From positions 38,251 to 102,250 of the forward strand of contig JAZNPL010000031.1 of the NCBI GenBank assembly GCA_045589615.1: DNA of 64,000 bases, in the 5' to 3' direction. A model generated the notes under the pieces. That model was not told where the DNA came from. It saw only the letters and a program-made list of their open reading frames with translations, and made no database searches. Both the position numbers and the translations under genes were made by a program. Source of the DNA: Christensenellaceae bacterium (GTDB taxonomy: Bacteria; Bacillota; Clostridia; Christensenellales; Borkfalkiaceae). The first letter of the stretch is position 1. Every line of letters starts with the position of its first letter. This document shows, piece by piece, positions 10,709-40,436 of this stretch.

Positions 10709-10774
10709 AAAAATTTTTAAAAAAATCGTTGACAAATATTAGAAAAAAAAGTAAACTAAAAACGAACTCAATAT

Positions 10775-10930
10775 TATCCGGTAGGTAAGGCTACCATAGG
10801 GATACGGGCTGCTGCCGCAAACTAGTGGAGACACTACGAGATGGTTTCAACAGACTACGTCGAAAACAAGGCGTAATCCAATGCAGTTTCACTGCCCTAC
10901 GGTGCTAAAGCCAGCATGGTAACAGTACTT
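10775..10930 (+). promoter_or_regulatory. M-box (ykoK) Mg2+ riboswitch
   Basis: GGTAGGTAAGGCTACC..GGGATACGGGCTGCTGCCGCAAA..GGAGACACTACGAGATGGTTTCAACAGACTACGTCGA..AATGCAG..CTACGGTGCTAAAGCC aligns block by block with the B. subtilis mgtE leader. Confidence 0.9.
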
Positions 10931-13946: not shown

Positions 13947-15023
13947 TTATACTTGTTTGTCGCAATAAACGCAACGGTAAATTTCTTTTTCTTTATCGAC
14001 AAGTCTTACCGCTTGGTCTAATTCTTGTTCGGTTTGAGTTATACAACGTGGGTTTTTGCATACGTGCTTATTAAAAATTACGTCGTCGCCTAGCCTACGT
14101 TCTATAAAGTTTTTATCTTTTAATAATTTTAGAATAAGTGCCATTCTAACGTACTTGCCGTTTGCCACTTGCTTAAAGTAACACGCACGCTTATCAGCGT
14201 CAACCTTTACGCTTATTTCGTTTACCCTTGGCAACGGGTGTAAAACTATCATATCCGATTTTGCACTTTGCATTTTTTCTTCCGTCAAAATATAACTGTC
14301 TTTTAGTCTTTCGTATTCCGATTTATCGGTAAATCTTTCTTGCTGAATTCTAGTCATATATAAAACGTCAAGTATATCTAAACTCTTTTCTAAATCACAA
14401 GTTTCCTTATAACGCATATTGCACTTATCAAGTACGTCTTGCTTAACGTAATCGGGAAGTCTTAATTCTTCGGGCGAAATCAATACTATATTAATGTTTT
14501 CATATCTTGACAACGCACCTATCAAAGAGTGTACTGTTCTTCCGTACTTTAAGTCGCCACAAAAACCAATGGTCAAGTTGTCAAGCGTGCCTTTTTCTCT
14601 ATAAATGGTCAATAAATCGGTTAGCGTTTGAGTGGGGTGACAATGTCCGCCGTCCCCTGCATTGATTACGGGAATACTTGCGTTTAAAGAAGCAACTAAC
14701 GGTGCACCTTCTTGGTAAGAACGCATTGCTATTATGTCAGCGTAACAAGAAATTACCTTAGAAGTGTCCGCAACGCTTTCGCCTTTACTTACCGAAGAAC
14801 TGCCGGGGTCCGAAAAGCCTATTACCGAGCCTCCTAGTTCTAGCATAGCCGATTCAAAAGAAATTCTAGTTCTAGTTGACGGTTCGTAAAATAAGGTCGC
14901 TAGTTTTTTGCCCTTGCATTTTTTAGAATACTTTTTGGGCTTTTTTATAATGTCTAACGCCGTATCTAATAAATCGTATATCTCTTTTTTCGTTAAGTCA
15001 ACTACGTCGATAACGTTTCTCAT
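13947..15023 (-). CDS. pyrB: aspartate carbamoyltransferase catalytic chain fused to a PyrI-type zinc domain
   Basis: STRTR, HPTQ and HPLPR motifs are present. A ~55-aa C-terminal extension, [14 protein letters not shown]...[10 protein letters not shown] (C-x4-C...C-x2-C), resembles the PyrI C-terminal domain. Confidence 0.85.
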
Positions 15024-21600: not shown

Positions 21601-21847
21601 GTCTTTCATATCTTAAAATTTTCGCCACGTATTCTAGCGTAAGTGGTTCCATATACACTTTGTCGGCGATTGAAGTGTCGGTCATTATGGTTGCAGGGTT
21701 AGAGTTTACTAAAACTACTTCGTAGCCTTCTTCCTTTAATGCTAAACACGCTTGCGTGCCTGCATAGTCAAACTCTGCCGCTTGTCCTATTACGATAGGG
21801 CCAGAACCAATGATAAGTATCTTTTTTAAGTCTTTTCTCTTTGCCAT
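18659..21847 (-). CDS. carB: carbamoyl-phosphate synthase large subunit
   Basis: 1062 aa. Duplicated ATP-grasp halves (IIGSGPIVIGQAAEFDY and VLGAGPIRIGQGVEFDY) and an MGS-like C-terminus. Confidence 0.95.
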   Translation of the reverse strand: MAKRKDLKKILIIGSGPIVIGQAAEFDYAGTQACLALKEEGYEVVLVNSNPATIMTDTSIADKVYMEPLTLEYVAKILRYERPDAIVPGIGGQTGLNIAMQLEKKGVLKECRVQLLGTSSASIERAEDREMFKEMCEKIGEPVIPSEITYNLDQAIESAKRIGYPVVLRPAFTLGGTGGGFAYNEEELIEIARNGFALSPVSQVLVEKSVKGYKEIEFEVMRDSKDNAITICGMENVDPVGVHTGDSIVVAPILSLSKEDHKRLNDSAIKIIRELKIEGGCNVQFALNPETSEYYLIEVNPRVSRSSALASKASGYPIARVTAKIAVGMELKDIPVAGGTADIEPSLDYIVAKFPRFPFDKFTSASNLLGTQMKATGEVMGIGSTLAECMLKSVRSLEIGADHFHIAKFDDFTNEQLVEYFKDYRADTIFSVAELLRRGETVEKLHKYTQITELFLETIKEIVDMEKVVKANANDLEVLKQAKVLGFSDKYISKLWKNKEREIYNLRKANGITPVFKMVDTLHTGYYIAYLYSTYQNLVKKVENESRLTDKKKLVVLGAGPIRIGQGVEFDYSTVHAVQTIKRSGYEAIIINNNPETVSTDYTTADKLYFEPLTTEDVMAILDYEQAEGVVASLGGQTAINLAKPLFDRGIKIVGTDCDAIDKAENRDLFEKLLEDLNIPQPEGCAVTKIEDGVKAAERIGYPVLVRPSFVLGGRAMQIVANETQLRHYLKTAVEIDEDKPVLVDKYVIGKEVEVDAICDGKDVFVPGVMELVERTGIHSGDSISVYPTFSISDKVKGTILQYAKKLGLGIGIRGLYNIQFIVDKDEKVYIIEVNPRSSRTVPFLSKATGYSLADIATEVIMGKTLKEQGIFNIYPEEKKRYYVKVPVFSFNKIKGLDAYLSPEMKSTGEAIGYDDTLNRALYKALQASGMKLQNYGTVFATIADVDKAEALPLIRRFYNLGFNIEATIGTAKFLKENGIRTHVVKKISEGSDEIKNAIRQGYIAYVINTSDVGSIGAESDGFQIRKYAIESNVSMFTSLDTVRVLLDVLEETTLTISTIDA

Positions 21848-21861
21848 TTTATCCTTCCTTT

Positions 21862-23064
21862 TTACATAGAGTAAACTGCTTTGTCGTTATATACCGTCAA
21901 ATAATTTCGTCCGAAAACCTTGTAGTTTTCAAAGGGCGTTGCTTTGCCCTTAGACAAAAATTCATTTGGATTTATTAAATATTCTTCCTCTAAATTCCAC
22001 ACCGAATAGCCGTTGTATTTAATATTAAATCGGTTTCGTGGATTGTTTGCAAGTAGGTCAATTAACTTTTCTAAACTTATTACCCCTTCCTTTACTAAAT
22101 AGGTATAACAAATAGGAAACGCCGTTTCAATGCCAACTATTCCAAACGCACTGCCAGATAATCCTTTAGATTTTTCTTCCATAGAGTGTGGTGCGTGGTC
22201 GGTTGCAATCATATCAATCGTGCCATCAATTACCCCTAAAATTAAGGCTTCTTTATCGCTTTTGTCCCTTAAGGGTGGATTCATCTTAAACTTGCCGTCT
22301 TCTTTCAAATTGGAGTCGTCTAAAACTAAATAGTGTGGGCCCGTTTCGCAAGTAACGTTTATTCCACTTTTCTTAGCGTCCCTAATAACTTCCACGCTTT
22401 CTTTCGTAGAAATATGACAAACGTGGTAAGCACAACCCGTTTCTTCAACGAGTTTTAAGTCTCTTTCAATCTGCTTGTATTCGCTTGCAGAACAAATGCC
22501 TTTATGCCCGTGTTCTTTAGCGTACTTTCCGTCGTGAATATATCCACCAAAAAGTAAAGAATTGTCTTCGCAATGTGCCGTAATGATTTTGCCTAATGAT
22601 TTAGCCTTAAGCATTGCTTCTTTCATAAGTTCTTTGCTTTGAACGCCCCTACCGTCGTCCGAAAAAGAAATCGATAGGTCTTTTAGGTTGTCCATATCGG
22701 AAAGCCTTTCGCCTTTCTGCCCAACAGTTATAGAAGCGTACGGATAAACGGCAATGCAAGCGTCTTTCTTGATAATATCAAGTTGAACGCCAATATTTTC
22801 CACCGAATCGGGAACGGGGTTAAGGTTAGGCATAGAACAAACTGCCGTATAGCCACCCCTAGCACAAGCGTTAGTGCCCGTTTTTATGGTTTCTTTATAA
22901 AAAAACCCCGGCTCTCTCAAATGAACGTGAACGTCACAGAAACCGGGAAAAATAACGAAATTATCAGTAGAAGAAGCAGAAGCGGGAACTTTTAAAGACA
23001 AATCGGCAAGCGATTTACCTAAATAATTTTTACCCGTTACTATCGTTGTTCTTTTGAAACCCAT
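21862..23064 (-). CDS. pyrC: dihydroorotase
   Basis: DVHVHLREPG metal motif, TDHAPH, 400 aa, GGAGAA RBS. Confidence 0.9.
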   Translation of the reverse strand: MGFKRTTIVTGKNYLGKSLADLSLKVPASASSTDNFVIFPGFCDVHVHLREPGFFYKETIKTGTNACARGGYTAVCSMPNLNPVPDSVENIGVQLDIIKKDACIAVYPYASITVGQKGERLSDMDNLKDLSISFSDDGRGVQSKELMKEAMLKAKSLGKIITAHCEDNSLLFGGYIHDGKYAKEHGHKGICSASEYKQIERDLKLVEETGCAYHVCHISTKESVEVIRDAKKSGINVTCETGPHYLVLDDSNLKEDGKFKMNPPLRDKSDKEALILGVIDGTIDMIATDHAPHSMEEKSKGLSGSAFGIVGIETAFPICYTYLVKEGVISLEKLIDLLANNPRNRFNIKYNGYSVWNLEEEYLINPNEFLSKGKATPFENYKVFGRNYLTVYNDKAVYSM

Positions 23065-23308: not shown

Positions 23309-24982
23309 TTAGAATAACCCAGAAATTACACCGTTTTCATCAACGTCAATTTTTTCGGCTGCGGGAACTTTAGGAAGCCCGGGCATAGTCATAATATCGC
23401 CTGTTAAAACAACCAAGAACCCTGCGCCTGCTGAAACTTTGACCTTTCTAACCGTAACGGTAAAATCTTCGGGTGCACCAAGTTTTGTCATATCGTCTGA
23501 AAAACTGTACTGAGTCTTTGCTATACATACTGGAATTTTATCAAACCCTAACGCCGTTAGTTTTTTGATTTCTTTTTGTGCACTTGCCGTAAAGTTAACG
23601 TCTTTTCCACCGTAAACTCTAGTAACTACTGCTTTGATTTTGTCTTCAATAGAACAATCTAACTCATAAGAGAAAGAAAAATCGTTAGGTTTTTCGCAAA
23701 GTTTAACCACTTCTTCAGCAAGAGCCATACCGCCCTTTCCACCGTCTGCCCATACGGTTGACAACACGATGTTTACACCAAGCGTCTTGCACTCTTCAAT
23801 TACCATTTCGATTTCCTTGTCGGTATCGGTTGGGAATCTATTTACTGCAACCACGCAAGGTAGTTTATATACATTTACTATATTAGAAACGTGTCTTAAT
23901 AAGTTAGGAAGTCCTTTCTTTAGGGCTTCTAAATTTTCATTGCCAAGTTCGGTTTTTGCCATACCACCGTGCATTTTTAACGCTCTAATGGTAGCAACGA
24001 CTACTACTGCGTCGGGCTTTAAGCCTGCCATACGACACTTAATATCAAGGAATTTTTCAGCACCAAGGTCAGCACCGAAACCTGCTTCAGTAACACAGTA
24101 ATCGCCAAGTTTCATTGCCATTTTGGTTGCTATTACAGAGTTACAACCGTGTGCAATATTAGCAAACGGACCACCGTGAACGAACGCAGGCGTTCCTTCT
24201 AAGGTTTGAACTAGGTTTGGCTTTAACGCATCTTTAAGAAGTGCCGCCATAGCACCAACTGCCTTTAATTCGCCTGCCGTAACGGGCTTACCGTCGTAAG
24301 TGTATGCAACGACTATTCTAGAAAGTCTTTCCTTTAAGTCGGTAATAGAATTTGCTAAGCAAAATACTGCCATAATTTCAGAAGCAACGGTAATATCAAA
24401 CCCGTCTTCTCTAGGAACACCGTTAGAACTTCCACCAAGACCGTCTATAACGAAACGAAGTTGTCTATCGTTCATATCAACGCAACGTCTCCAAACGATA
24501 CGTCTTGGGTCGATATTGAGTTCGTTGCCTTGTTGAATATGGTTATCAAGCATTGCAGCAAGCAAGTTGTTTGCCGCCCCAATTGCGTGAAAGTCGCCCG
24601 TAAAGTGAAGATTTATATCTTCCATAGGCACTACTTGAGCGTATCCGCCACCAGCAGCACCACCCTTAACGCCAAACACTGGTCCTAAAGACGGTTCACG
24701 AAGCGCAACGACAACGTTTTTACCTATTTTTTTCAAGCCGTCCGATAGACCAATGGTGGTAGTGGTTTTACCTTCGCCAGCAGGGGTTGGGGTAATTGCC
24801 GTAACTAAGATAAGTTTACCGTTTTTACGGTCGCTTTCGTTTAGAAGTTTATAGTCAACCTTTGCCTTGTAGTTGCCGTATTGTTCTAAATATTTTTGGT
24901 CAACGCCACAATCCTTTGCTATTTCGGTAATGTGTTTCATTTTGCACGCTTGTGCAATTTCAATGTCAGACAAATATGCCAT
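23309..24982 (-). CDS. fhs: formate--tetrahydrofolate ligase
   Basis: 557 aa. P-loop [11 protein letters not shown] and a characteristic N-terminus (SDIEIAQ). It lies 10 nt downstream of purL. Confidence 0.95.
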
Positions 24983-24992
24983 TTTTTATCTC

Positions 24993-27900
24993 CTATTTGA
25001 AATATTTAACTGCCGATTCAAACAGTTTCATATCGTATTCGCCGGGCACGTTTTTATATAAGCCGTAACCCTTTCTTTCAGAGTGTCCCATCTTGCCGAA
25101 AACTCTACCGTCGGGAGATAAGATACCTTCGATTGCGTTTCGGCTTCCGTTGGGGTTAAAGTGAATATCCATAGTTGCTTTGTCGTCAAAGTCAACGTAT
25201 TGAGTCATAATTTGACCGTTTGAAGCAAGTTTTTCAATCAATTCGTCGCTAGCAATAAACTTGCCTTCGCCGTGAGAAATAGGAACGTTAAACACGTCGC
25301 CTACGTTAACTGCCGTAAGCCAAGGCGATTTATTAGAAGCAACCCTAACTCTAACAATTCTTGATTGGTGTCTTGCTATGTCGTTATAAGTAAGGGTAGG
25401 ACAATTAGCGTCGGTATCAATAATTTTTCCGTAAGGTACTAAGCCAAGTTTAATAAGTGCTTGGAACCCGTTACAAATACCACCCATAAGTCCGTCTCTA
25501 TCGTTTAGAAGCGAGTGAATTTCTTCCTTGATTGCTCCGTTTCTAAAGAACGCCGTAATAAATTTACCAGAACCGTCCGGTTCGTCACCACCAGAGAATC
25601 CACCGGGTATAAACACGATTTGACTTTCTCTACACTTTTTAGCAAATTCTTCAACCGAACGTGCTACGTCGTCATTTTTTAAGTTTTTAATAACGAATAT
25701 TTCGGCTTCTGCACCAGCGTCGGTAAAGGCTTTCGCAGTATCAAATTCACAGTTAGTTCCGGGGAATACTGGAATTAATACCTTGGGTTTTGCAACCTTA
25801 ACGCCACAAACTAATTGATTGCCCTTGTCAAATGAAAGAGTTGTAGCACTGCTTTCTTTATTAGTAATATTACAAGCAAAAATGCTTTCAAGTTTGTTTT
25901 CGTAAACGCCTAAAAGTTGGTCTAGGCAAAGTTTCTCACTTCCCTTAACTATCGTCTTTTCAGCAATAGTTTCACCTAAGGTGTATCCGATATTTTCGTC
26001 GCTATCAAGTTCTATAACGAACGCACCATAATTATAAGCAAATAGATCTTTTGTGTCGATATTTTCCTTGTACTTAAAGCCTAGTCCGTTACCGATAGCC
26101 ATTTTAAATACCGCTTCAGCAATACCACCGAAACCGATAGAATAAACTGCCAATGCTTTTTTAGTAGAAGCCAATTTATAAACGGTATTAAAGTTATCGA
26201 TAAGTGATTTAGTTACGGGCAAGCCGTTTTCATCATATTCGGGTTTTAATACTACTACTTTGCTTCCTGCTTTCTTAAATTCGGGGGTAACTACTTCGTC
26301 AACCTTGCCCGTCGTTACAGCAAACGAAACTAGGGTTGGTGGAACGTCTATGTTTTCAAAAGTACCACTCATAGAATCTTTACCACCGATTGCGGCACAC
26401 TTTAATTCTATTTGTGCTTTGTATGCACCAAGAAGTGCCGAAACGGGTTCGCCCCAACGGCTTGCGTCTTTGCCTAAACGCTTAAAGTATTCTTGGAAAG
26501 TTAAATATACGTCCTTAAATTCAGCACCCGTAGCAATTAGTTTACTAACGCTTTCAACTACTGCAAGGTACGCACCGTGGTAAGGGCTTTTTTCCATTAC
26601 GAAGGGATTGCCACTCCACGCCATAAACGAAACGGTATCGGTATGCTTTTTCTCTACCGAAACTAAGTTTACCATTGCTTGCGAGGGTGTTAATTGATTT
26701 TTACCACCGAAAGGCATTGTTACAGTACCGGCACCGATAGTAGAGTCAAAACGTTCGCTAAGTCCACGCTTAGAACATACGTTAAGGTCGCCCACTAAAT
26801 CTTTATAACCCTTAGAAAAATCAGTTACTTCTTCTTTAGAGTAATCGTTACACTTAACGGTCTTTGCGTTTATATGCTTTTCAGCACCGTTAGAATTTAA
26901 GAATTCTCTTGAAATATCTACGATTTTTTTACCGTTCCAAGTCATCGTAAGACGTGGATTATCGGTAACTGAAGCAACTATGGTTGCTTCTAAGTTTTCT
27001 TGTTCACAAAGTTTAATAAACTTTTCAACGTCTTTTTCTTCAACTACTACTGCCATTCTTTCTTGAGATTCGGAAATAGCAAGTTCAGTACCGTCTAAGC
27101 CGTCGTATTTTTTGGGAACTGCGTTAAGGTCAATTTCAAGCCCGTCGGCAAGTTCGCCTATTGCAACCGATACACCGCCTGCACCAAAGTCGTTACAGCG
27201 TTTAATTAGTATCGACGCTTCTTTATTTCTAAATAATCTTTGAAGTTTTCTTTCTTCTGGAGCGTTACCCTTTTGAACTTCTGCTCCACAACTAACTAGT
27301 GATTCTAGGGTGTGTGATTTACTTGAACCCGTAGCACCACCACAGCCGTCTCTACCCGTTCTGCCACCGATAAGAATAACTCTGTCTCCACCGATTGGGC
27401 GTTCTCTACGAACGTTTTCTTCGGGAGCACCTGCTATAACTGCACCGATTTCTAGACGTTTTGCAACGTATCCGTCGTGATAAATTTCATCAACTTGACC
27501 TGTCGCAAGACCAATTTGGTTACCGTAAGAAGAATAACCAGCAGCGGCCGTCGTTACGATTTTTCTTTGTGGAAGTTTGCCCTTTAAGGTTTGGTCAATA
27601 GGCTTTAAGGGGTCGCTTGCACCCGTTACACGCATTGCACCGTAAACGTAACTTCTACCAGAAAGTGGGTCTCTAATTGCACCACCGATACAAGTAGCAG
27701 CACCACCGAAAGGTTCAATTTCGGTAGGGTGATTGTGCGTTTCGTTCTTAAATAATAAGAGCCATTTTTCGGGCTTGCCGTCAACCATAACTTCTATCTT
27801 GACGGTACAAGCGTTTATTTCTTCCGATTCGTCAAGTTTGTCTAAATATCCTTGCTTTTTTAATACCTTGCCAGCAAGAGTGCCTATATCCATAAGGTTT

Positions 27901-28682
27901 ATAGGTTTAGTTCTATTTAAATCCTTTCTTGCCGATAAATATTCTTCAAAAGTCTTTTGTAAAAGTTTGTCTTCAAAAGAAATTTCATCAATCGTCGTTA
28001 AGAAAGTGGTATGCCTACAGTGGTCTGACCAATAGGTGTCAATCATACGAATTTCGGTTATCGTAGGATTTCTCTTTTCCTTAATAAAATAACTTTGACA
28101 GAATGCGATATCGTCTTCGTCCATAGCGAGCGAATACTCTTTAACGAAGTTTTTAAGCCCGTTTTTGTCAAGGTCGATAAACCCGTCTAAAACCTTAACT
28201 TCAGTAGGGATTTGATGCTGAATTTTTAAGGTTTGCTTTTCGCCTAAATCGGCTTCTCTACTTTCTACGGGGTTTATAACGAACTTTTTAATCGCTTCAA
28301 GTTCTTCCTTTGAAATTTCGCCGTAAACCATATATACCTTTGCAGTTGCAACGATAGGTCTGTTCTTTTGCGAAATCAACTGAATACATTGTGCTGCAGA
28401 GTCTGCCCTTTGGTCAAACTGACCGGGTAAATATTCTACTGCGAAAACTTGTGCTTGATCTTTTTCTAGCGAAGAAAAAGCATCGTCCATTTGTGGTTCG
28501 CTAAATACCGTCTTTACTGCGTAGTCGAATAATTCTTTTTCAATATCTTCTACGTCGTAACGGTTTATAACACGTACTTTTTCTACCTTGTTTATTCCTA
28601 AAAAATCTTTGATTTCCTTAGTTAGAGATTTGGCTTCGTTGTCAAACCCTACTTTCTTTTCAACAAATATTCTGTAAACCAT
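24993..28682 (-). CDS. purL: phosphoribosylformylglycinamidine synthase, single-chain large form
   Basis: 1229 aa. It has an N-terminal PurS-like domain, a duplicated AIRS-type synthetase core, and a C-terminal glutaminase domain with GGICNGFQ and GHSER. Confidence 0.95.
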   Translation of the reverse strand: MVYRIFVEKKVGFDNEAKSLTKEIKDFLGINKVEKVRVINRYDVEDIEKELFDYAVKTVFSEPQMDDAFSSLEKDQAQVFAVEYLPGQFDQRADSAAQCIQLISQKNRPIVATAKVYMVYGEISKEELEAIKKFVINPVESREADLGEKQTLKIQHQIPTEVKVLDGFIDLDKNGLKNFVKEYSLAMDEDDIAFCQSYFIKEKRNPTITEIRMIDTYWSDHCRHTTFLTTIDEISFEDKLLQKTFEEYLSARKDLNRTKPINLMDIGTLAGKVLKKQGYLDKLDESEEINACTVKIEVMVDGKPEKWLLLFKNETHNHPTEIEPFGGAATCIGGAIRDPLSGRSYVYGAMRVTGASDPLKPIDQTLKGKLPQRKIVTTAAAGYSSYGNQIGLATGQVDEIYHDGYVAKRLEIGAVIAGAPEENVRRERPIGGDRVILIGGRTGRDGCGGATGSSKSHTLESLVSCGAEVQKGNAPEERKLQRLFRNKEASILIKRCNDFGAGGVSVAIGELADGLEIDLNAVPKKYDGLDGTELAISESQERMAVVVEEKDVEKFIKLCEQENLEATIVASVTDNPRLTMTWNGKKIVDISREFLNSNGAEKHINAKTVKCNDYSKEEVTDFSKGYKDLVGDLNVCSKRGLSERFDSTIGAGTVTMPFGGKNQLTPSQAMVNLVSVEKKHTDTVSFMAWSGNPFVMEKSPYHGAYLAVVESVSKLIATGAEFKDVYLTFQEYFKRLGKDASRWGEPVSALLGAYKAQIELKCAAIGGKDSMSGTFENIDVPPTLVSFAVTTGKVDEVVTPEFKKAGSKVVVLKPEYDENGLPVTKSLIDNFNTVYKLASTKKALAVYSIGFGGIAEAVFKMAIGNGLGFKYKENIDTKDLFAYNYGAFVIELDSDENIGYTLGETIAEKTIVKGSEKLCLDQLLGVYENKLESIFACNITNKESSATTLSFDKGNQLVCGVKVAKPKVLIPVFPGTNCEFDTAKAFTDAGAEAEIFVIKNLKNDDVARSVEEFAKKCRESQIVFIPGGFSGGDEPDGSGKFITAFFRNGAIKEEIHSLLNDRDGLMGGICNGFQALIKLGLVPYGKIIDTDANCPTLTYNDIARHQSRIVRVRVASNKSPWLTAVNVGDVFNVPISHGEGKFIASDELIEKLASNGQIMTQYVDFDDKATMDIHFNPNGSRNAIEGILSPDGRVFGKMGHSERKGYGLYKNVPGEYDMKLFESAVKYFK

Positions 28683-29951
28683 TTAATTTCCCTTTTTTGC
28701 TAGTGCTTTTGCACCGATGTCTTTTCTATAATATTGATTGTTAAAGTTTACTTTTTCTACTAACCCGTAAGCGTTTTTAATTGCTTCGCCTAGGTCTTTA
28801 CCTATTGCAGTTACGCCTAAAACTCTACCACCGTTAGTTAAAAGTTTTCCGTTTTCAAGTTTTGCACCTGCTACGTAAACGTTCTTTTCTACACCGTCAG
28901 TAAAAGTTATTTCATAGCCCTTTTCGTACTTTTCGGGATAGCCTTTTGAAGCCATTATTACGCAACACGCAGAGCCATTATCAAACTCTACCTTAACGTC
29001 TTTTAGGTTTCCAAAAGTCGTCGCTTTCATAATTTCAAGTAGGTCTGACTTTAATAGTGGTAAAACTACTTGCGTTTCGGGGTCGCCAAAACGACAGTTG
29101 TATTCTATTACCTTTGGTCCTTTTTCAGTTAGCATTAAACCAAAATATAAACAGCCCTTAAAGGTTCTATTTTCAGCGTTCATTGCCTTTACGGTAGGCA
29201 TAAAAATTTTATCCATACACTCTTTAGCAATATCTTCGGTGTAATAGGGGTTGGGAGCAATAGTTCCCATACCACCTGTATTTAAGCCTTTATCGCCGTC
29301 AAGTGCACGCTTGTGGTCCATAGAAGATACCATTGGAACAAGCGTTTCGCCATCGGTAAATGCAAGCACCGAAACTTCTGGGCCTTGTAAAAATTCTTCG
29401 ATAACTATTTTATCGCCACTCTTGCCGAAAACCTTGTCGCTCATCATAGAACGAACGGCAGACTTTGCTTCTTCTAAAGTGGTTGCAATTATAACCCCCT
29501 TGCCTAGTGCAAGTCCGTCAGCCTTAATTACGGTTGGAATTGGTGCTGTATCTAAATATTCTAACGCCTTTTTCTCGTCGTCGAATATTTCATATTCAGC
29601 AGTAGGAATACCGTACTTTTTCATTAAGTTTTTAGAAAAAGCCTTGCTCCCTTCTATAATCGCTGCGTTTTTGTTAGGTCCAAAACAAGGAATACCCTTA
29701 TCCGTCAAAGCGTCAACAGTCCCCATAACCAACGGGTCGTCGGGTGCAACTACTGCGTAGTCGATTTTATTGTTAACTGCAAACTCTACTACCTTTTCTA
29801 AGTCGGTTGCACCGATATTAACGCATTCAGCGTCAGCCGAAATGCCACCGTTTCCAGGCAGTGCGTAAATCTTTTCTACGCCCTTGCTTTCCTTTAGTTT
29901 TTTGATGATAGCGTGTTCTCTACCGCCACCGCCAACTACCATTATTTTCAT
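28683..29951 (-). CDS. purD: phosphoribosylamine--glycine ligase
   Basis: MKIMVVGGGGREHAI N-terminus, ATP-grasp fold, 422 aa. Confidence 0.95.
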   Translation of the reverse strand: MKIMVVGGGGREHAIIKKLKESKGVEKIYALPGNGGISADAECVNIGATDLEKVVEFAVNNKIDYAVVAPDDPLVMGTVDALTDKGIPCFGPNKNAAIIEGSKAFSKNLMKKYGIPTAEYEIFDDEKKALEYLDTAPIPTVIKADGLALGKGVIIATTLEEAKSAVRSMMSDKVFGKSGDKIVIEEFLQGPEVSVLAFTDGETLVPMVSSMDHKRALDGDKGLNTGGMGTIAPNPYYTEDIAKECMDKIFMPTVKAMNAENRTFKGCLYFGLMLTEKGPKVIEYNCRFGDPETQVVLPLLKSDLLEIMKATTFGNLKDVKVEFDNGSACCVIMASKGYPEKYEKGYEITFTDGVEKNVYVAGAKLENGKLLTNGGRVLGVTAIGKDLGEAIKNAYGLVEKVNFNNQYYRKDIGAKALAKKGN

Positions 29952-29961
29952 TGTTTTCTCC

Positions 29962-31149
29962 TTAGTGGTGGAATAATCTCATACCGGTAAACGCCATAAC
30001 CATGCCGTATTTGTTTGCCGCTTCGATAACTAGGTCGTCTCTAACTGAGCCACCTGGTTCTGCTACGTAAGAAACGCCACTCTTTGCAGCCCTATCAATG
30101 TTGTCAAAGAAGGGGAAGAAAGCATCGCTTCCTAAGGTTACGCCCTTGATAGTTTTAAGGTATGCGTCCTTTTCTTCACGAGTAAAGGGTTCGGGGCGAA
30201 CTGCAAAGTATTTTTGCCATACGTCGTCGCCTAAAACTTCTTGACTGTCGGTGTCTGATAAATAGAGGTCGATTACGTTGTTCTTGTCAGGTCTTCCTAT
30301 GCCGTCTGCAAATTGTAAACCTAAAACTTTATCGTGTTGACGGAGATGCCATAAGTCTGCTTTTTGAGCAGCAAGACGTGTACAGTGAATTCTTGATTGT
30401 TGTCCTGCACCTACGCCGATTGCTTGTCCGTCTTTAGCAAAGCATACTGAGTTAGATTGAGTGTACTTTAAGGTAATTAAAGCAATAATCATATCGGTAA
30501 TAACTTCGTCAGATAAATCTTTATTTTTAGTAACGATGTTTTGTAAGAGTTCCTTATTGATTTTGAAGTTGTTTCTACCTTGTTCAAAAGTGATGCCGAA
30601 AACTTGTTTTCTTTCGGTTTCTTCGGGAACGAAGTTGGGGTCGATTTTAACTACGTTATAAGTACCCTTTCTCTTTTTGGTTAAAACTTCAAGTGCTTCT
30701 TTTGTGTAAGACGGAGCAATAACGCCGTCAGAAACTTCTCTTGAAATAATTTTTGCAGTGGTTAAATCGCACTCGTCAGAAAGAGCAACCCAATCACCGA
30801 ACGACGACATTCTGTCCGTTCCTCTTGCTCTAGCGTAAGCACAAGCAAGTGGAGACTCGTCTAAGCCTACAATATCGTCAACAAAGCAAGCCTTTTTTAA
30901 TTTTTCGGGAAGAATTTTTCCTACCGCAGCAGAAGTGGGAGAAACGTGCTTGAAACTTGCAGCGGCACACATACCCGTTGCTTCTTTGATTTCTTTTACT
31001 AATTGCCACGAGTTAAATGCGTCTAAAAAGTTAATGTAGCCGGGGCGACCACTTAAGATTTCGATAGGTAATTCGCTACCGTCTGCCATATAAATTCTAG
31101 ATGGTTTTTGGTTGGGGTTACAGCCGTACTTTAATTGAAATTCTTTCAT
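29962..31149 (-). CDS. purH: AICAR formyltransferase (stand-alone AICARFT domain; no MGS-like IMP cyclohydrolase domain)
   Basis: 395 aa. It begins LKYGCNPNQ, which corresponds to the LRYGENPHQ start of the PurH C-terminal domain, and ends FTGMRLFHH. Confidence 0.85.
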   Translation of the reverse strand: MKEFQLKYGCNPNQKPSRIYMADGSELPIEILSGRPGYINFLDAFNSWQLVKEIKEATGMCAAASFKHVSPTSAAVGKILPEKLKKACFVDDIVGLDESPLACAYARARGTDRMSSFGDWVALSDECDLTTAKIISREVSDGVIAPSYTKEALEVLTKKRKGTYNVVKIDPNFVPEETERKQVFGITFEQGRNNFKINKELLQNIVTKNKDLSDEVITDMIIALITLKYTQSNSVCFAKDGQAIGVGAGQQSRIHCTRLAAQKADLWHLRQHDKVLGLQFADGIGRPDKNNVIDLYLSDTDSQEVLGDDVWQKYFAVRPEPFTREEKDAYLKTIKGVTLGSDAFFPFFDNIDRAAKSGVSYVAEPGGSVRDDLVIEAANKYGMVMAFTGMRLFHH

Positions 31150-31161
31150 TTTTATTCTTCC

Positions 31162-31881
31162 TTATTTGTTTTTATTGATTAATCTGTTTTCTATTTTTCC
31201 ACTCTTTAAGTCGGTATATCTAACGTAGAGTGAAATCTTGTTTTCTTTGTCTAAATTTTCCCAAAGATTATTGGTAAATGCGTCGATATCGTCGTCGATT
31301 TTAACTCTTTCGGGTTCGCCTTGGAATGTGGGAATAGGATTTCCGTCGCATACGTAGGTATGAATAAAATGTCCTAAACCGTTAAGGGGCTTATAAGAGA
31401 AAGTGTATCTATTACAAGCACTGCCAATTTCGTCGGCAGATTTTAGAATACTCATTTCGTAAGTAAAATCGTTGTCCTTGAAATTGATAATACCACTAAT
31501 TCTTGGCGTAAGGTTAGGTGCATCGGGTTCAAACTCTCTTTGTTCTAAAGAAGCCTTAAAATCTAAACCCTTTTCTAAGCCTTTGTAAATGGTGTCCGTT
31601 TGATTGCCGTTGGTTACGATTAGACTATTTTTATAAGTACGAAGTGCAGCGTAGATTATTAGACTTGGGTCTTCTACCTTAGAAGCGTCAAAAGGCTCTG
31701 TAAAAACTTCGCCGTTCTTTTCGGTAAACACACGGTTTCTTGAATTGTTGCTTCTACCCATAATAAAATAAGCCGAAACAGCCTTGCTTCCGTCAGCAGT
31801 TTTGCCGATTACTATGCCACGACCTACGTAAGAATTGTCTTTTATAAGTTCGCCAATATCGTTAATTTTGTAAATATTCAT
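31162..31881 (-). CDS. purO: PurO-type (archaeal-type) IMP cyclohydrolase
   Basis: 239 aa. SYVGRGIVIGKTADGSKAVSAYFIMGRSNNSRNR and VTNGNQTDTI parallel the PurO family. Confidence 0.75.
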   Translation of the reverse strand: MNIYKINDIGELIKDNSYVGRGIVIGKTADGSKAVSAYFIMGRSNNSRNRVFTEKNGEVFTEPFDASKVEDPSLIIYAALRTYKNSLIVTNGNQTDTIYKGLEKGLDFKASLEQREFEPDAPNLTPRISGIINFKDNDFTYEMSILKSADEIGSACNRYTFSYKPLNGLGHFIHTYVCDGNPIPTFQGEPERVKIDDDIDAFTNNLWENLDKENKISLYVRYTDLKSGKIENRLINKNK

Positions 31882-31882
31882 T

Positions 31883-32494
31883 TTACTTACTCTCCCTAAT
31901 TAATTTAGAAATTTTTTGGCAAGAAGCGGGAAGTATTATCCACTCTGCTTGCTCCATTACTCTCTTTTGTAGAATTTCGGGCGTGTCGCCGTCTAAAATT
32001 TCCACTGCTTTTTGCATTATAATTTCGCCACCGTCTGGAATTTCGTTTACGAAATGCACGGTTGCACCCGTTACTTTTACGCCATAGATGAGTGCTTCTT
32101 CGTGAACTTTAAGTCCGTAAAACCCTTTTCCGCAAAAAGACGGAATTAGCGACGGGTGAACGTTAATTATTCTGTTTTTGTATCGGCTTGTAAAGTTTTC
32201 GCCTAAAATATTCAAAAACCCTGCAAGCACGATTAACTCTATATCAAATTCGTCTAAAACTTTTATGATTTCTTCTTCAAACTTTTCTTGACTGCCACAC
32301 GCCTTTTTATTAACGACCTTGCAAGGTATCCCTGCGTTTTTAGCCCTTTCTATTGCGTAGGCTTTAGCACTTGAAGAAATTACAACCGTAATTTTTCCGT
32401 CGGGAATTTGACCGTTTTTCTCACAATCGATTAACGCTTGAAGATTAGTGCCACCGCCCGATACAAAAACGGCTATCTTGGTTTTATCAGCCAT
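31883..32494 (-). CDS. purN: phosphoribosylglycinamide formyltransferase
   Basis: IAVFVSGGGTNLQAL, NVHPSLIP, 203 aa. Confidence 0.9.
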   Translation of the reverse strand: MADKTKIAVFVSGGGTNLQALIDCEKNGQIPDGKITVVISSSAKAYAIERAKNAGIPCKVVNKKACGSQEKFEEEIIKVLDEFDIELIVLAGFLNILGENFTSRYKNRIINVHPSLIPSFCGKGFYGLKVHEEALIYGVKVTGATVHFVNEIPDGGEIIMQKAVEILDGDTPEILQKRVMEQAEWIILPASCQKISKLIRESK

Positions 32495-33113
32495 TGTCTT
32501 TCTCCTTGAAAACGCTTTTTAGTAGTGGGAACAAAAGTCCACCCACCGTGTTTCCTAAAATTACCGTCCAAATGTATAGAAAAGAATTAAAATCTATAAC
32601 GCCTGCTATTGCAAAGTAGCCCATATTCGCTATGGAGTGTTCAAACCCACAAAGAATAAAAACGGGAATACAAAATACCACGCCTAGCATAGTGTTCTTT
32701 TCCTTATATAAGGCAACGGCAACGTACATTAAAATGCCACAAAAGATTGCTTTTATAAATGCTTCAAAAAAGGCTTGTTGAAGTTTAGAAGAAACTAAAG
32801 AAAAAGCAGTTTCTTTTACTTGTGGCAAGCAATAGCCTATCATTAGGCCAAAGATAAAGGTTGCTAAAACGTTTCCAAAAAGCCCCAAACTCAAGGTCGG
32901 AAATTCCTTTTTGAAATTTTTAATCGTCATAAACCCAATCTTGCCCGTGTAGAGCGAAAAGCCCTTATAACAAATGGTAATTAGTGCAACTGCAAACAGT
33001 AATGCACCGTAAATTTTGTTAACGTTTAGACAAGACAGATAAACGGTACAACCGATTATAATCATAATTCCGGCAAGAACGCCGTCAATAGTCTTACGTG
33101 TAAAATCTCTCAT
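32487..33113 (-). CDS. formate/nitrite transporter (FNT) family membrane protein, compact 208-aa form
   Basis: Six TM segments and the FNT signature CGFEHSIANM. It overlaps purN by 8 nt and starts 3 nt after purM. Confidence 0.75.
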   Translation of the reverse strand: MRDFTRKTIDGVLAGIMIIIGCTVYLSCLNVNKIYGALLFAVALITICYKGFSLYTGKIGFMTIKNFKKEFPTLSLGLFGNVLATFIFGLMIGYCLPQVKETAFSLVSSKLQQAFFEAFIKAIFCGILMYVAVALYKEKNTMLGVVFCIPVFILCGFEHSIANMGYFAIAGVIDFNSFLYIWTVILGNTVGGLLFPLLKSVFKEKDNG

Positions 33114-33115
33114 AA

Positions 33116-34156
33116 TTATTTAATGATAATTTTATCTTCGCTTTTTTGAATATATCCGATAATATAGGGGTTTTCGCCGTTTGCTTTAAGAATTTCCATT
33201 GCCTTATCAGCGTCTTCTTTAGCAACGATAACGCTCATACCAACGCCCATATTAAAGGTGTTGAACATATCTCTTTCGCAAATGTTGCCTTCCTTTTGGA
33301 TAAGTTTAAAGATAGGTAAAATTTTAACGGCACTCTTGTCAACTACTGCACCAAGCCCGTCGGGAATACTTCTTGGAATATTTTCGTAAAAACCACCACC
33401 CGTAATGTGAGAAACGCCTTTAACTTTTACTTGTTCAAATAGTGCAAGCATAGGCTTAACGTAAATTTTGGTGGGGGTTAATAATACTTCGCCTAAAGAT
33501 TTACCGCCTAATTCTTCTCTTGGCAATTTAATATCACAGTTTTCAATATCGAAAACCTTTCTAACTAGTGAAAAACCGTTAGAGTGAACGCCAGACGACG
33601 GCAATGCGATAATAATATCCCCTTCTTGCATAGATTTTTTATCGATAACTTTCGATTTATCTACGATACCTACTGAAAAACCTGCTAAATCGTATTCGTC
33701 GATAGGGTAAAAACCGGGCATTTCTGCCGTTTCGCCACCGATTAACGCACTGCCCGATTGAACGCAACCTTCGGCAATGCCTTCTACGATAGAAGCAATC
33801 TTTTCAGGAACGTTTTTACCGCAAGCGATATAATCTAAAAAGAATAAAGGCTTAGCACCACAACAAATAACGTCGTTAACGCACATTGCAACGCAGTCGA
33901 TACCAACCGTGTTGTGCTTGTCCATTAAAAACGCCATTTTAAGTTTAGTACCAACGCCGTCCGTACCAGATACGAGTACGGGGTTAGTATAACCCGTAAG
34001 GTCAAGCGAGAAAAGTCCACCAAAACCACCGATATCGTCGGCATTACCTTCGGTAACCGTTCTTGCTATGTGTTTTTTCATTAATTCAACTGCTTTGTAG
34101 CCGGCGGTAATATCAACGCCTGCTTCTTTATAACTTTCAGAAAAACTTTTTTTCAT
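33116..34156 (-). CDS. purM: phosphoribosylformylglycinamidine cyclo-ligase
   Basis: [17 protein letters not shown], 346 aa. Confidence 0.95.
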
Positions 34157-34175
34157 AATCTATCTCCAAAAAAAA

Positions 34176-35600
34176 CTATTCTTTGCCGTTCCAACAATAA
34201 GTGCATAACTTTTCGGGTTCTAAGCCGATTGCTTCTAGCATACCTTCAAGAGATTGAAACTCTAGCGAATCAAACCCGAATTTATCACAGATAGCCTTTC
34301 TCATTTTCTTGCCCCTTTCGGTTTTTGCATCGCTATATTCGTCAATGTGCTTTAGACCTTCTTCCCCTTCGAGTTCTACGATTGTTCGCCTTGTTATTAA
34401 CTCTAAATCGCTAGTCGCCCTTGAAAAGGCAAGATATTTACAACCAAACATTATAGGTGGGCAAGCCGAACACATATGTACTGCTTTTGCACCGTTTTCA
34501 TATAAAAATTCTACCGTTTCTTTTAGTTGCGTTCCTCTTACGATAGAATCGTCTAAGAAAAGCAATTTTTTGTTTTTTATAAGTTCGGTTACGGGAATTT
34601 GTTTCATTTTGGCAATCTTGTTTCTATCAACTTGATTGTTAGGCGTGAAACTTCTCGACCAAGTGGGCGTGTATTTTATATACGGTCTTGCAAATGGAAT
34701 TTTACTCTTATTAGCATAACCTATTGCGTGGGGAGTACCAGAGTCCGGAACACCACAAACGTAATCAACGTCGTGTTTTTCGCCACGCATCTCTTTATTT
34801 CTTGCAAGTATTTCACCGTTTCTATAACGCATAGTTTCTACCGTTATTCCTTCGTAACAAGAAGTAGGATAGCCGTAATACGTCCAAAGGAAAGAACACA
34901 TTTTCATTTCCTTTCCAGCAGGTCTTAAAATCTCTATATCGGTAGGCGTAATCTTAACCGTTTCGCCAGGCCCTAATTCCTTTACCGTTTTATAGCCTAG
35001 TTTTAGATAAGCGTACGATTCAAACGAAATACAATGTCCGTCTCTATTTTTGCCGATGAGTACGGGAAGCCTACCCAAACGGTCCCTTGCAACAATGATA
35101 GAACCGTCCCCCGTCAAAATAATAATCGAAGCCGTGCCTTTGATTAGCGATTGAGCAAACTCTATACCTTCTTCAAAGGTTGGTTTTTGGTTGATTAAAG
35201 AAGCAACTAGTTCGGTATTGTTTATAGTACCGCCAGAAGCAACGCCAAAATGTCCGCCGTTTTCAAAAATATATTTTTCAACAAGTTCATTTAGGTTGTT
35301 AATAACGCCCACGATCGCAACTGCGTAAACGCCGAGTTTCGACCTAATCAAAAGTGGTTGTGGGTCGCTATCGTTTATACAGCCGATAGCCGAACAACCT
35401 TTCATTTCGTCAAAAACGTGTTCGAACTTAGTTCTAAATGGAGCGTGTTCTAAATTATGAATTTTTCTCTGCAACCCCACTTCTTCATTAAAAACGGCAA
35501 TGCCACCACTTTTAGTACCTAAATGCGAGTGATAGTCAGTACCGAAAAACACGTCGGATAAACTACTTTTTTTGGATACGACACCGAAAAATGCACCCAT
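34176..35600 (-). CDS. purF: amidophosphoribosyltransferase-like protein lacking the N-terminal Cys nucleophile
   Basis: PRTase motif LLFLDDSIVRGTQ. Putative Fe-S Cys positions (MCSFLWTYY, CSACPP..GCKY, CTYCWNG). The N-terminus is MGAFFGVV, where canonical PurF has CG(I/V)FG. AGGAG RBS 8 nt upstream of the ATG. Confidence 0.8.
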   Translation of the reverse strand: MGAFFGVVSKKSSLSDVFFGTDYHSHLGTKSGGIAVFNEEVGLQRKIHNLEHAPFRTKFEHVFDEMKGCSAIGCINDSDPQPLLIRSKLGVYAVAIVGVINNLNELVEKYIFENGGHFGVASGGTINNTELVASLINQKPTFEEGIEFAQSLIKGTASIIILTGDGSIIVARDRLGRLPVLIGKNRDGHCISFESYAYLKLGYKTVKELGPGETVKITPTDIEILRPAGKEMKMCSFLWTYYGYPTSCYEGITVETMRYRNGEILARNKEMRGEKHDVDYVCGVPDSGTPHAIGYANKSKIPFARPYIKYTPTWSRSFTPNNQVDRNKIAKMKQIPVTELIKNKKLLFLDDSIVRGTQLKETVEFLYENGAKAVHMCSACPPIMFGCKYLAFSRATSDLELITRRTIVELEGEEGLKHIDEYSDAKTERGKKMRKAICDKFGFDSLEFQSLEGMLEAIGLEPEKLCTYCWNGKE

Positions 35601-35617
35601 AAAAACTCCTTTAAATT

Positions 35618-36304
35618 TTAAGCGAAAAATAATTTAGATAAGGTCATTGGGTCAACGTACTTGCCGTCTTTATAAACACGCATATTGCCAGAAGCAATTT
35701 CGTCGATTAAAATAACGTTGCCGTCTTTATCATAACCAAATTCGAATTTAATATCGTATAATACTAAGCCCTTTTCCTTAAGGTCGTCAGCAACGATTTT
35801 GGTAATTTTTTGAGTCATTTCCTTAACGTCGTCATATTGCTTAGCCGTCATAACGCCAAGGTCGATAAGACCGTCTTTAGTAACTAGTGGGTCACCCTTT
35901 TCGTCGTTTTTGAAAGTGGTTTCAACGTATGCGGGAAGGTCTGCTCCTTCTTCTATGTAGTCGCTATATCTTCTGTAAAAACTTCCTACTGCTTTATAAC
36001 GACAAATAACTTCTAAGCCTTTACCGAAAGGTTTAGCGGGAACTACTTCCATAGTAGTGTCTTCAAGGTTAGCAGAAATATAGTGAGTGTTAATACCTGC
36101 TTTATTAACCTTTTCAAAGAAATAGATAGACATACGAAGGTTTACGTCGCCAACGCCGTCAATAGTAAGACCAACCGAATTTTCACCGGGGTCAAAAACT
36201 CCGTCTTTTCCGGTGCAATCGTCTTTGAATTTCAAAAGATAATTGCCGTTAGCAAGAGCAAAAACGTTTTTGGTTTTTCCTGTGTAAACTAGTTTCTTTT
36301 CCAT
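35618..36304 (-). CDS. purC: SAICAR synthase
   Basis: 228 aa. YTGKTKNVF and [14 protein letters not shown] motifs. Confidence 0.9.
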
Positions 36305-36322
36305 AAATGTATCTCCTATAAA

Positions 36323-36814
36323 TTATTTACTTAATTGTTCTAAGATTGCTTTGTCCTTTTCAAGAACCTTTTTAGCGTCTGCAATTTTTTTCGCTTGCAA
36401 TTTTTCAGAAAGTTTTTCATCACTAACTGCAAGAATTTGAATAGCCAAAAGCCCTGCGTTAGCCCCACCGTTAATAGCAACGGTAGCAACCGGAACGCCA
36501 GACGGCATTTGAACGGTTGATAAAAGTGCGTCCATTCCGTCGTTATTGGATTTAGCGGGAATACCAATAACGGGAAGTGTTGTCCTTGCTGCAAGAGCCC
36601 CTGCAAGGTGTGCAGCCATACCAGCAACGCCGATAATAACACCGAAACCGTTTTCTTTTGCTTTTTGAGCGAACTCGCCCGCTTCATCAGGCGTGCGGTG
36701 AGCAGAATAAACGTGTGCTTCAAACGGAACGCCAAATTCTTTTAAAACGTCAACGGTTTTTTGAACGATAGGTAAATCACTATCGCTACCCATAATAATT
36801 GCAACTTTTTTCAT
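36323..36814 (-). CDS. purE: 5-(carboxyamino)imidazole ribonucleotide mutase / AIR carboxylase catalytic subunit
   Basis: IIMGSDSDLP, GVAGMAAHLAG, PVIGIP. 163 aa. Confidence 0.9.
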   Translation of the reverse strand: MKKVAIIMGSDSDLPIVQKTVDVLKEFGVPFEAHVYSAHRTPDEAGEFAQKAKENGFGVIIGVAGMAAHLAGALAARTTLPVIGIPAKSNNDGMDALLSTVQMPSGVPVATVAINGGANAGLLAIQILAVSDEKLSEKLQAKKIADAKKVLEKDKAILEQLSK

Positions 36815-36826
36815 AAAAACACCTCC

Positions 36827-36942
36827 AAAAAAACAAAAAAGGGCGCAAAATTTCCGCTTAAGAAATTTTCGCCCAGACGCACGGCTTAATATTAGTTTTT
36901 ATTGCACTATGGTACACCATACTTACTCGTCAGTAATAAAAA
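36827..36942 (-). promoter_or_regulatory. ZTP (pfl-motif) riboswitch with overlapping terminator
   Basis: The minus-strand RNA reads UUUUUAUU-ACUGACGAG-..AUGGUGUACCAU-AGUGC-AAUAAAAA, then a linker, then GCCGUGCGUCUGGGCG. GACG...CGUC covaries with the consensus GGCG...CGCC pseudoknot. The terminator GGGCGAAAAUUUC..GGAAAUUUUGCGCCC plus a U-run shares the GGGCG of the aptamer. Confidence 0.85.
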
Positions 36943-36966
36943 CTCCCTTTGTTTTTTAACGGTATA

Positions 36967-40066: not shown

Positions 40067-40146
40067 TTGCCGTTAGGCAAATTTCACTGCGAAGCAATTT
40101 CACTTGCATAAAGCAAATTTCACAAATCCATAAGGATTTATTTCAC
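40067..40146 (+). repeat. array of four contiguous [variable hairpin + ATTTCAC] units
   Basis: TTGCC-GTTA-GGCAA ATTTCAC / TGC-GAA-GCA ATTTCAC / TTGC-ATAAA-GCAA ATTTCAC / AAATCC-ATAA-GGATTT ATTTCAC. There are no gaps between units. Confidence 0.8.
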
Positions 40147-40436
40147 TTTTTTGGAATAGCAACTATCTGACCGTAAAATAGGTATGGAATTTCGCCGTTT
40201 AGACTTTCAAACTCACTGTTTGATAAGCAAAATTTGTTTAGGACTTGTTCTAAGGTTTCAAACGGCTTTACTTGATAGCAATAGGTTGCGTTATCGCAGA
40301 TGAGAAGCAAGTCGCCCGCTTGAATTTCGCAATTTAGACGGTTTAGTTTTATTAGATATAACGGAGATACCTTAAAGGCGTTGGCAACGCTTAATATGGT
40401 ATCTTTTTTTTCTACTCTATAAATAATCTTTTTCAC
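40143..40436 (-). CDS. small protein with two LysM-like repeats
   Basis: YRVEKKDTILSVANAFKVSPLYLIKLN...AGDLLLI and YQVKPFETLEQVLNKF...GQIVAIP. GTG start with no clear RBS, so the start is uncertain. Confidence 0.5.
   Translation of the reverse strand: MKKIIYRVEKKDTILSVANAFKVSPLYLIKLNRLNCEIQAGDLLLICDNATYCYQVKPFETLEQVLNKFCLSNSEFESLNGEIPYLFYGQIVAIPKK

Follow-up and report, generated by a model that had tools for sequence, protein, structure and literature searches.

Amidophosphoribosyltransferase (PurF) catalyses the committed, feedback-regulated step of purine synthesis and is presented in textbooks as obligately glutamine-dependent. Here we analysed a gene of a Christensenellaceae bacterium that lies in the purF slot of a purine (pur) operon and encodes a PurF paralog lacking the N-terminal cysteine nucleophile (Cys1) at which glutamine is hydrolysed; it was studied within a 64-kb stretch of DNA (GenBank assembly GCA_045589615.1, contig JAZNPL010000031.1, positions 38,251 to 102,250), referred to throughout as the window. 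PurF-like proteins without this cysteine have been described in Crenarchaeota, where PurF' carries Ala or Val at the nucleophile position, always occurs with a canonical PurF nearby and was suggested, as a proposal only, to be ammonia-dependent (Brown et al. 2011, Biology Direct 6:63, PMC3261824). The same survey cites work on Escherichia coli PurF in which replacement of Cys1 abolished glutamine activity while ammonia use was kept. A full-text literature search for a characterised Cys-less or ammonia-dependent PurF found nothing beyond this 2011 archaeal survey, and no description of a bacterial Cys-less family was found in it either; papers on the Fibro-purF riboswitch and on the C. phytofermentans proteome had no bearing on the question.

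Relative to PurF of the Bacillus subtilis type (4Fe-4S class; PDB 1AO0 and 1GPH; TIGR01134), the window protein has the same two-domain fold in its predicted structure (template-modelling (TM) scores of 0.83-0.86), the phosphoribosyl pyrophosphate (PRPP) loop, the flexible-loop Lys/Arg residues, the four Fe-S cysteines and the slot between purC and purM, whereas it differs in having neither propeptide nor Cys1, in reading GTQ for GTT, in the replacement of Arg26, Asn101 and Asp127, in the deletion of the Arg73/Tyr74 loop and in an overall identity of ~28%. With the crenarchaeal PurF', compared on the basis of their published description, it shares a PurF-like character, the lack of an N-terminal Cys and a place near purine genes; in contrast, the family to which it belongs occurs in Clostridia, Bacteroidota and archaea bearing DNA polymerase D (PolD), often without a canonical neighbour in the purF slot. 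To our knowledge, PolD is absent from Crenarchaeota. Variants of E. coli PurF with a mutated Cys1 or a deleted N-terminus, made in the Zalkin laboratory, provide, through their NH3-dependent synthesis of 5-phosphoribosylamine (PRA), a chemical precedent for the mechanism proposed below; unlike these mutants, the Cys-less family is natural, ancient and selected, with a remodelled and conserved N-domain. A further parallel is offered by AsnA as opposed to AsnB, by NH3-dependent NadE and by CarB without CarA, which are glutamine-independent isozymes where ammonia is plentiful, although these counterparts usually have no glutaminase domain whereas Cys-less PurF keeps the domain in an inactivated form.

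On the evidence presented here, we consider it fairly probable (roughly 0.6) that the Cys-less protein would act as an ammonia-dependent PRPP amidotransferase, making PRA from PRPP in the manner of PurF's own ammonia half-reaction. Free ammonia had been named as one possible nitrogen donor in a preliminary description of the gene, which was made from the sequence by eye, and it emerges as the best-supported mechanism on the strength of an intact phosphoribosyltransferase (PRTase) half, the alternation of the Cys-less and canonical genes in one operon slot and the Cys1-mutant precedent.

Loss of the glutaminase site

The product of the open reading frame (ORF) begins MGAFFGVVSKK, and the stop codon of purC (35620-35618) lies 17 nt upstream of its ATG; the ORF, its MGAFFG start, the AGGAG preceding it and the adjoining purC are as they had been described (coordinates in Table 1). 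No Cys-bearing alternative start is available, because the frame meets a stop 11 codons upstream and the stretch in between contains neither a Cys codon nor ATG, GTG or TTG. The 74 full-length orthologs taken from other genomes start MGG(F/Y)F in 73 cases and LGGFFGI in one, with Cys at position 2 in none (0/74). An upstream start or a sequencing error that would restore the Cys, both of which had been named beforehand as possible sources of error, is ruled out by the upstream stop together with these N-termini. The N-terminus is strictly fixed and never extended, as would be expected, because residue 1 of an N-terminal-nucleophile (Ntn) domain is buried and, without Cys, no autoprocessing would remove a leader.

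Residues of the glutaminase site were compared in a MAFFT alignment that comprised PurF of E. coli and of B. subtilis, another eight PurF proteins with Cys (six of them clearly canonical) and 17 diverse relatives, with positions given in E. coli PurF numbering. Cys1 corresponds to Gly2 of the window protein, and in the Cys-less family, including the cluster representatives described below, to G, S, T, A, D or K but never Cys; Arg26 corresponds to Leu27 (mostly Leu in the family, also M, R or T). The glutamine loop Arg73-Tyr74-x-Thr76 is gone, owing to an eight-residue deletion common to the whole family (gap at E. coli 73-80). Val97 and Asn128 stand in for Asn101 and Asp127, both at positions that vary within the family, while Gly102 is retained as Gly98, as it is across the family except in two members (A and S). 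The loss of the glutaminase machinery that had been read by eye was borne out for Cys1, Arg26 and Asn101, with Gly102 kept, and was extended by the glutamine-loop deletion. Furthermore, the match to TIGR01134, the NCBIfam purF equivalog, reached 166 bits, under the cutoff of 350. The window protein departs from canonical PurF in its nucleophile, its glutamine-site residues and its TIGR01134 score; judged from these features, it falls outside the glutamine amidotransferase equivalog, Ntn-type glutamine hydrolysis is not possible and glutamine-dependent PRA synthesis is predicted to be absent.

The phosphoribosyltransferase half and the predicted fold

The PRTase half proved intact in the same alignment, in agreement with the preliminary description. 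Ser287, Lys309, Arg316 and the loop residues Asp350-Asp351-Ser352-x-x-Arg355-Gly356-Thr357 are retained, and do not vary within the family; Lys309 and Arg316 are the counterparts of E. coli Lys326 and Arg332, and the PRPP-loop Asp pair is that of E. coli Asp366/367. Across 21 diverse family members K309, R316, S317, R326, K333, D351, S352, R355 and Q358 are invariant. The PRPP loop ends in the family signature GTQ, as opposed to GTT in canonical PurF, and the channel residue Ile335 is altered in the window protein.

Four cysteines of the window protein, C235, C387, C466 and C469, correspond to Cys236, 382, 437 and 440 of B. subtilis PurF, respectively; across the 21 members C235, C387 and C469 never vary, while the conservation of C466 is at least 90%. 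The motifs MCSF, GCKY and CTYCW had thus been rightly taken to hold 4Fe-4S ligands, but the Cys residues of 'CSACPP', which had been listed with them, are not ligands. A 4Fe-4S cluster of the B. subtilis class is predicted from the four conserved Cys ligands, whose retention fits an anaerobe.

The closest sequence match in the PDB was B. subtilis PurF (1AO0, E=2e-36), followed by the Arabidopsis and E. coli enzymes. An AlphaFold2 model built on a 21-sequence alignment reached a predicted local distance difference test score (pLDDT) of 90.6 and a predicted TM score (pTM) of 0.90. Compared by Foldseek, the model superposed on B. subtilis PurF 1AO0 in both domains (TM 0.83/0.86), and the top 17 matches were all PurF (TM 0.80-0.86), with values of 0.83-0.86 for B. 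subtilis, Arabidopsis and E. coli PurF among them; the full two-domain PurF fold is therefore predicted to be kept in the Cys-less protein.

A large and ancient Cys-less family

A word-indexed protein search returned 8000 scored candidates, the best 120 of which were all 70-91% identical and, in all but one case, 473-475 amino acids (aa) long; eight retrieved close homologs all begin MG(A/G)(F/Y)FG. Searched exhaustively, a set of 1.84 billion cluster representatives yielded 7088 matches at E<=1e-3, with 525 at E<=1e-30. The top 150 included 58 longer representatives (430-700 aa), and only two of these have Cys at the nucleophile position; the N-terminally complete Cys-less representatives nearly all start M-(G/S/T/A/K/D)-G-(F/L/I)-x-G, and in most Cys-less representatives LQHRGQ is replaced by the hallmark (F/Y)xGTDYHSHLGT or a near variant. 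All three family hallmarks are present in the window protein, namely GTDYHSHLGT (residues 20-29), the Gln-loop deletion and DDSIVRGTQ (350-358), and at least 600 stretches with the pattern [DE]DS[IL]VRGTQ were retrieved in species-representative genomes.

Family members were found in Oscillospirales and Christensenellales, in Muribaculaceae (Bacteroidota), where the gene directly follows purL, in a bacterium with multihaem cytochromes, and in archaea, where the gene lies between PolD DP2 and TctA, the latter on the opposite strand; distant members stand alone beside unrelated genes. Two archaeal loci, L096 (4882-6297) and L190 (8001-9386), share this PolD DP2/TctA neighbourhood, away from purine genes. 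The earlier belief that similar MG(G/A)FFG proteins exist in other anaerobes was correct but understated: Cys-less PurF is a large, ancient family across two domains of life and not an oddity specific to one genome. Databases label its members 'amidophosphoribosyltransferase', and automatic annotation gives them the same name and Enzyme Commission number as PurF.

The mean pairwise identity of the 74 full-length orthologs, which come from related species, was 65.6% in the N-domain and 73.2% in the PRTase domain; domain-wise identity was used instead of dN/dS because synonymous sites were saturated at these divergences. The N-domain residues D22, H24, S25, H26, L27, G28, H48, P54, F55, R56, T57 and F59 are invariant in this set. 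Conservation of the N-domain comes close to that of the PRTase domain, and the 'dead' domain is under strong constraint.

Two proteins, P0248 (locus L191) and P0267 (L192), keep Cys1 and LQHRGQ, yet resemble the Cys-less family in the glutamine-loop deletion, in a Ser in place of Asn101 and in the GTQ signature, and may represent an evolutionary intermediate. The gene for P0248 adjoins one resembling GMP synthase subunit B.

Alternation of the two paralogs in the purC-purM slot

The pur operon of the window runs in the order purE, purC, Cys-less purF, purM, a formate/nitrite transporter (FNT)-like gene, purN, a PurO-like IMP cyclohydrolase gene, the gene for aminoimidazole carboxamide ribonucleotide (AICAR) formyltransferase, purD, a fused formylglycinamidine ribonucleotide (FGAM) synthase gene and fhs (formate-tetrahydrofolate ligase). 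The assignment of the gene to the purF slot of a ZTP-controlled operon was confirmed by the riboswitch match (Table 1), whereas the statement that the operon encodes the whole pathway was too strong, since purB and purK are found neither in it nor elsewhere in the window. Searches of the 64 kb by tblastn, with this protein and with B. subtilis PurF as queries, detected no second purF homolog. The gene is accordingly the only purF of the window, but its earlier description as the only purF does not carry over to related loci, some of which have a canonical gene alongside.

In a scan of species-representative genomes, 80 loci were recovered, all from Clostridia and at most 72% identical to the window protein, so that the species of the window is not among them. 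The Cys-less gene was present in 80/80; in 72 it was flanked, in the order expected, by purE/purC or purM, and the other eight were cut or without one flank. No canonical neighbour occurred within 10 kb of the Cys-less gene in 74 loci, while the other six (L018, L052, L063, L069, L072 and L075) carried Cys-less and canonical purF in tandem. The canonical partner, which immediately precedes or follows the Cys-less gene, shares 47-50% identity with B. subtilis PurF starting at residue 1 and has a B. subtilis-like propeptide (...EECGVFG...LQHRGQ). In other Oscillospirales, canonical purF alone occupies the same purC-purM slot.

Scanning Joint Genome Institute (JGI) metagenomes with the canonical PurF of L052 gave 18 close relatives (77-85% identity), all encoded inside a pur operon of a Christensenellales-like lineage. 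A Cys-less gene lay just upstream in 13 of the 18, four had the canonical gene only and one was cut by a contig end. The Cys-less proteins of L052, which has both genes, and of L067, a Christensenella metagenome-assembled genome with the Cys-less gene only, are 89.7% identical; similarly, those of L069 (both genes) and L078, a Lawsonibacter isolate (Cys-less only), are 86% identical. From the 18 loci and the L052/L067 pair it follows that the slot of one lineage may hold both genes, the canonical gene alone or the Cys-less gene alone.

A different arrangement was seen in CAG-217 Clostridia (supplementary GenBank files of PMC8545432), in which the pur operon, from purE to purM, is without a purF slot and canonical purF lies ~60 kb away, after genes for PII and a split glutamate synthase (GOGAT). 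On the contig (~27500-34638), canonical purF is the last gene in a cluster with a PII-like regulator, GATase, Glu_synthase and GXGXG. The glutamine-dependent enzyme thus sits in a nitrogen-assimilation and not a purine context; the case indicates that a distant canonical purF is possible and is silent on the source genome of the window. The Cys-less protein is an old paralog, in many cases found alongside the canonical enzyme, and not simply a degenerate purF. Operon variants were also observed in relatives (L086, L087, L090 and L091, ~13.1-13.9 kb; L103, 5461-6750): a methyltransferase gene lies between purN and the IMP cyclohydrolase gene in a canonical-purF species, and a purN-IMP cyclohydrolase fusion of 429 aa occurs on one contig.

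Ammonia as the candidate nitrogen donor

Reciprocal loss of either paralog in one slot, a classic sign of two genes capable of one task, argues that both perform the same pathway step, and suggests that the two are interchangeable for PRA synthesis. The intact PRTase site, the linkage to purine genes and the Cys1-mutant precedent argue for a working PRA synthase that does without glutamine, for which ammonia from solution would be the simplest donor. In the proposed mechanism, the PRTase site would attack PRPP with NH3 from solution, a chemistry also seen in canonical PurF whose Cys has been mutated. The conserved N-domain would be kept for structure, through the buried N-terminus, the domain interface and the Fe-S site, and, more speculatively, might also admit or bind ammonia. 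Ammonia reaches millimolar concentrations in the gut and the rumen, where many resident anaerobes prefer or require it; an enzyme of this kind would suit such ammonia-rich, anoxic surroundings and would save the ATP cost of glutamine synthesis. Where both genes occur, they could serve as isozymes for low-ammonia (glutamine) and high-ammonia conditions.

Several points weigh against ammonia dependence. The literature search yielded no enzymatic or genetic data for any family member, and a genome with the Cys-less gene in its pur operon may still encode a canonical copy as far away as in CAG-217; it is mainly because a canonical purF may lie elsewhere in the source genome that our confidence is limited to about the value given above. 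The Zalkin laboratory reportedly judged the ammonia activity of Cys1-mutant E. coli PurF too weak for growth, and a dedicated enzyme would accordingly need better ammonia handling. Furthermore, the conservation of the 'dead' N-domain (D22, H24, H26, H48 and PFRTKF) hints at a function beyond scaffolding, and a hetero-oligomer would likewise agree with the frequent tandem of the two genes. The ammonia model leaves both the Asp/His/Arg conservation of the N-domain and the lineage-specific tandem pairs unexplained; an ammonia entry site, allosteric or oligomeric roles and hetero-oligomers with canonical PurF are possible roles behind the two.

Alternative explanations

Models in which the protein is a regulatory partner, depends on a glutaminase partner or catalyses a different reaction all rank well below the ammonia model. 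Foremost among these, though improbable, is a non-catalytic or regulatory pseudoenzyme subunit that would join a canonical PurF, encoded alongside or at another place in the genome, in mixed oligomers and tune its activity or feedback inhibition. Such a subunit would agree with the tandem genes (6/80 loci, and 13/18 in one lineage), with the strong conservation of the N-domain despite a dead active site, with the oligomeric state of canonical PurF in PDB entries and with the neighbouring PurF and PurF' genes of Crenarchaeota (PMC3261824). However, the PRTase and PRPP residues are invariant across members that are 30-60% identical, which is unexpected for a pure regulator; no canonical gene lies within 10 kb in 74/80 loci, nor in the window, and canonical-only and Cys-less-only operons both occur within the same lineage.

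We consider it less likely still that the protein is an active PRA synthase fed with ammonia by a separate glutaminase or other source of nitrogen that would dock on its remodelled N-domain. Split amidotransferases are frequent in the purine pathway (PurL/PurQ/PurS), and the glutamine site is replaced by family-specific invariant residues of the surface or active site (D22, H24, H26, H48 and P54-F59); but no conserved unassigned gene lies alongside, the operon genes being accounted for in the window and in the 80 loci, and distant members stand alone by unrelated genes. The only glutaminase domain of the operon belongs to the fused FGAM synthase and has its own Cys intact (GGICNGFQ).

The least plausible of the three is that the protein catalyses a different PRPP-dependent transfer, in which the nucleophile is not ammonia, or some further purine-related reaction, with PRA made by a canonical purF elsewhere. 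The 28% identity to characterised PurF, the GTQ for GTT in the PRPP loop, the changed channel residue Ile335 and the score under the TIGR01134 cutoff would all be in keeping with such a change of function. Against it stand the tight, exclusive linkage to purine genes at the exact purF position, the replacement of canonical purF by the Cys-less gene in the slot and the absence of any gap in the purine pathway that calls for a new PRTase. Finally, although one G-to-T change would turn GGT (Gly2) into TGT (Cys), an artefact of wrong start or codon-2 sequencing error, or a decaying relic, is already refuted by the in-frame stop with no alternative start, the same type of N-terminus in hundreds of independent assemblies, the loss of four further glutaminase features including the eight-residue deletion, and the strong purifying selection, full-length ORFs and confident predicted structure.

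Genomic surroundings

The features of the gene and its operon are collected in Table 1.

Table 1. Positions, in window coordinates, of the Cys-less purF gene, its functional elements and its operon.
Feature	Position	Strand	Basis or remark
Cys-less PurF paralog gene	34176..35600	minus	single ORF, 474 aa plus stop
Ribosome-binding site AGGAG	35606..35610	minus	sequence reading
Gly2 codon GGT, at Cys1 nucleophile position	35595..35597	minus	alignment
N-terminal Ntn-type domain, dead glutaminase site, ~residues 1-230, family hallmark FFGTDYHSHLGT	34911..35600	minus	residue map
PRTase domain and C-terminal helices, ~residues 231-474, catalytic residues intact	34179..34910	minus	alignment
PRPP-binding loop DDSIVRGTQ, residues 350-358	34527..34553	minus	alignment
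Fe-S ligand codon span	34194..34898	minus	alignment to B. subtilis and A. thaliana PurF
Cys235 codon (MCSF)	34896..34898	minus	
Cys387 codon (FGCKY)	34440..34442	minus	
Cys466 codon (CTYCW)	34203..34205	minus	
Cys469 codon (CTYCW)	34194..34196	minus	
pur operon	23309..36814	minus	NCBIfam scans
ZMP/ZTP riboswitch heading pur operon	36864..36947	minus	Rfam RF01750, 52.8 bits vs gathering score 39

The FNT-like gene between purM and purN (32487-33113, minus strand) encodes 208 aa, matches TIGR00790 with 61 bits (cutoff 232) and has counterparts in nine of the 80 loci. Its presence, along with that of fhs as the last gene of the operon, suggests that formate is imported for 10-formyl-tetrahydrofolate under ZTP control. 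An adjacent pyrimidine operon comprises pyrC, carB, pyrK, pyrD, pyrF, a haloacid dehalogenase (HAD)-type hydrolase gene, pyrE and pyrB. In it, carB follows pyrC after 14 nt (18659-23064, minus strand), and carA, the gene for the glutaminase subunit of carbamoyl-phosphate synthase, is found nowhere in the 64-kb window, an absence that may be another sign of nucleotide synthesis from ammonia. The aspartate carbamoyltransferase gene (13947-15023, minus strand) shows a C-terminal match to the PyrI zinc domain (residues 322-357), which points to a fused or truncated PyrB-PyrI. Elsewhere in the window, two adjacent large ORFs on the minus strand (48969-51110, 713 aa, and 51147-52805, 552 aa) lack a match in Pfam at E<=1e-5; a Gut-1 RNA lies at 40076-40148, a tetrahydrofolate (THF) riboswitch at 6202-6296, upstream of an energy-coupling factor (ECF) S-component gene, and an M-box at 10770-10926, upstream of mgtE. 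An origin in gut Clostridia (GC 38%) is indicated by the Gut-1 RNA and by the homologs found in gut and rumen metagenomes.

Implications

If the Cys-less protein is an ammonia-dependent isozyme, metabolic models of many anaerobes of the gut and rumen assign this step a wrong nitrogen donor and ATP cost, and the known ammonia requirement of many such bacteria would gain a molecular component. The pattern of reciprocal loss would amount to a natural experiment on amidotransferases shedding their glutaminase function, and the conserved 'dead' Ntn domain would be a tractable case of domain repurposing; furthermore, inhibitors directed at the glutamine site of PurF as an antibacterial target would miss the Cys-less enzymes. 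A bolder version, which we regard as doubtful, would make the Cys-less proteins a stand-alone ammonia-dependent class whose pocket has been rebuilt for ammonium capture or entry (Asp22, His24, His26, His48 and PFRTKF), and which provides the sole first purine enzyme in many gut and rumen Clostridia, including the source organism, in Bacteroidota and in some archaea. Were this the case, much of the gut microbiota would have a committed purine step that is glutamine-independent and directly coupled to environmental ammonia.

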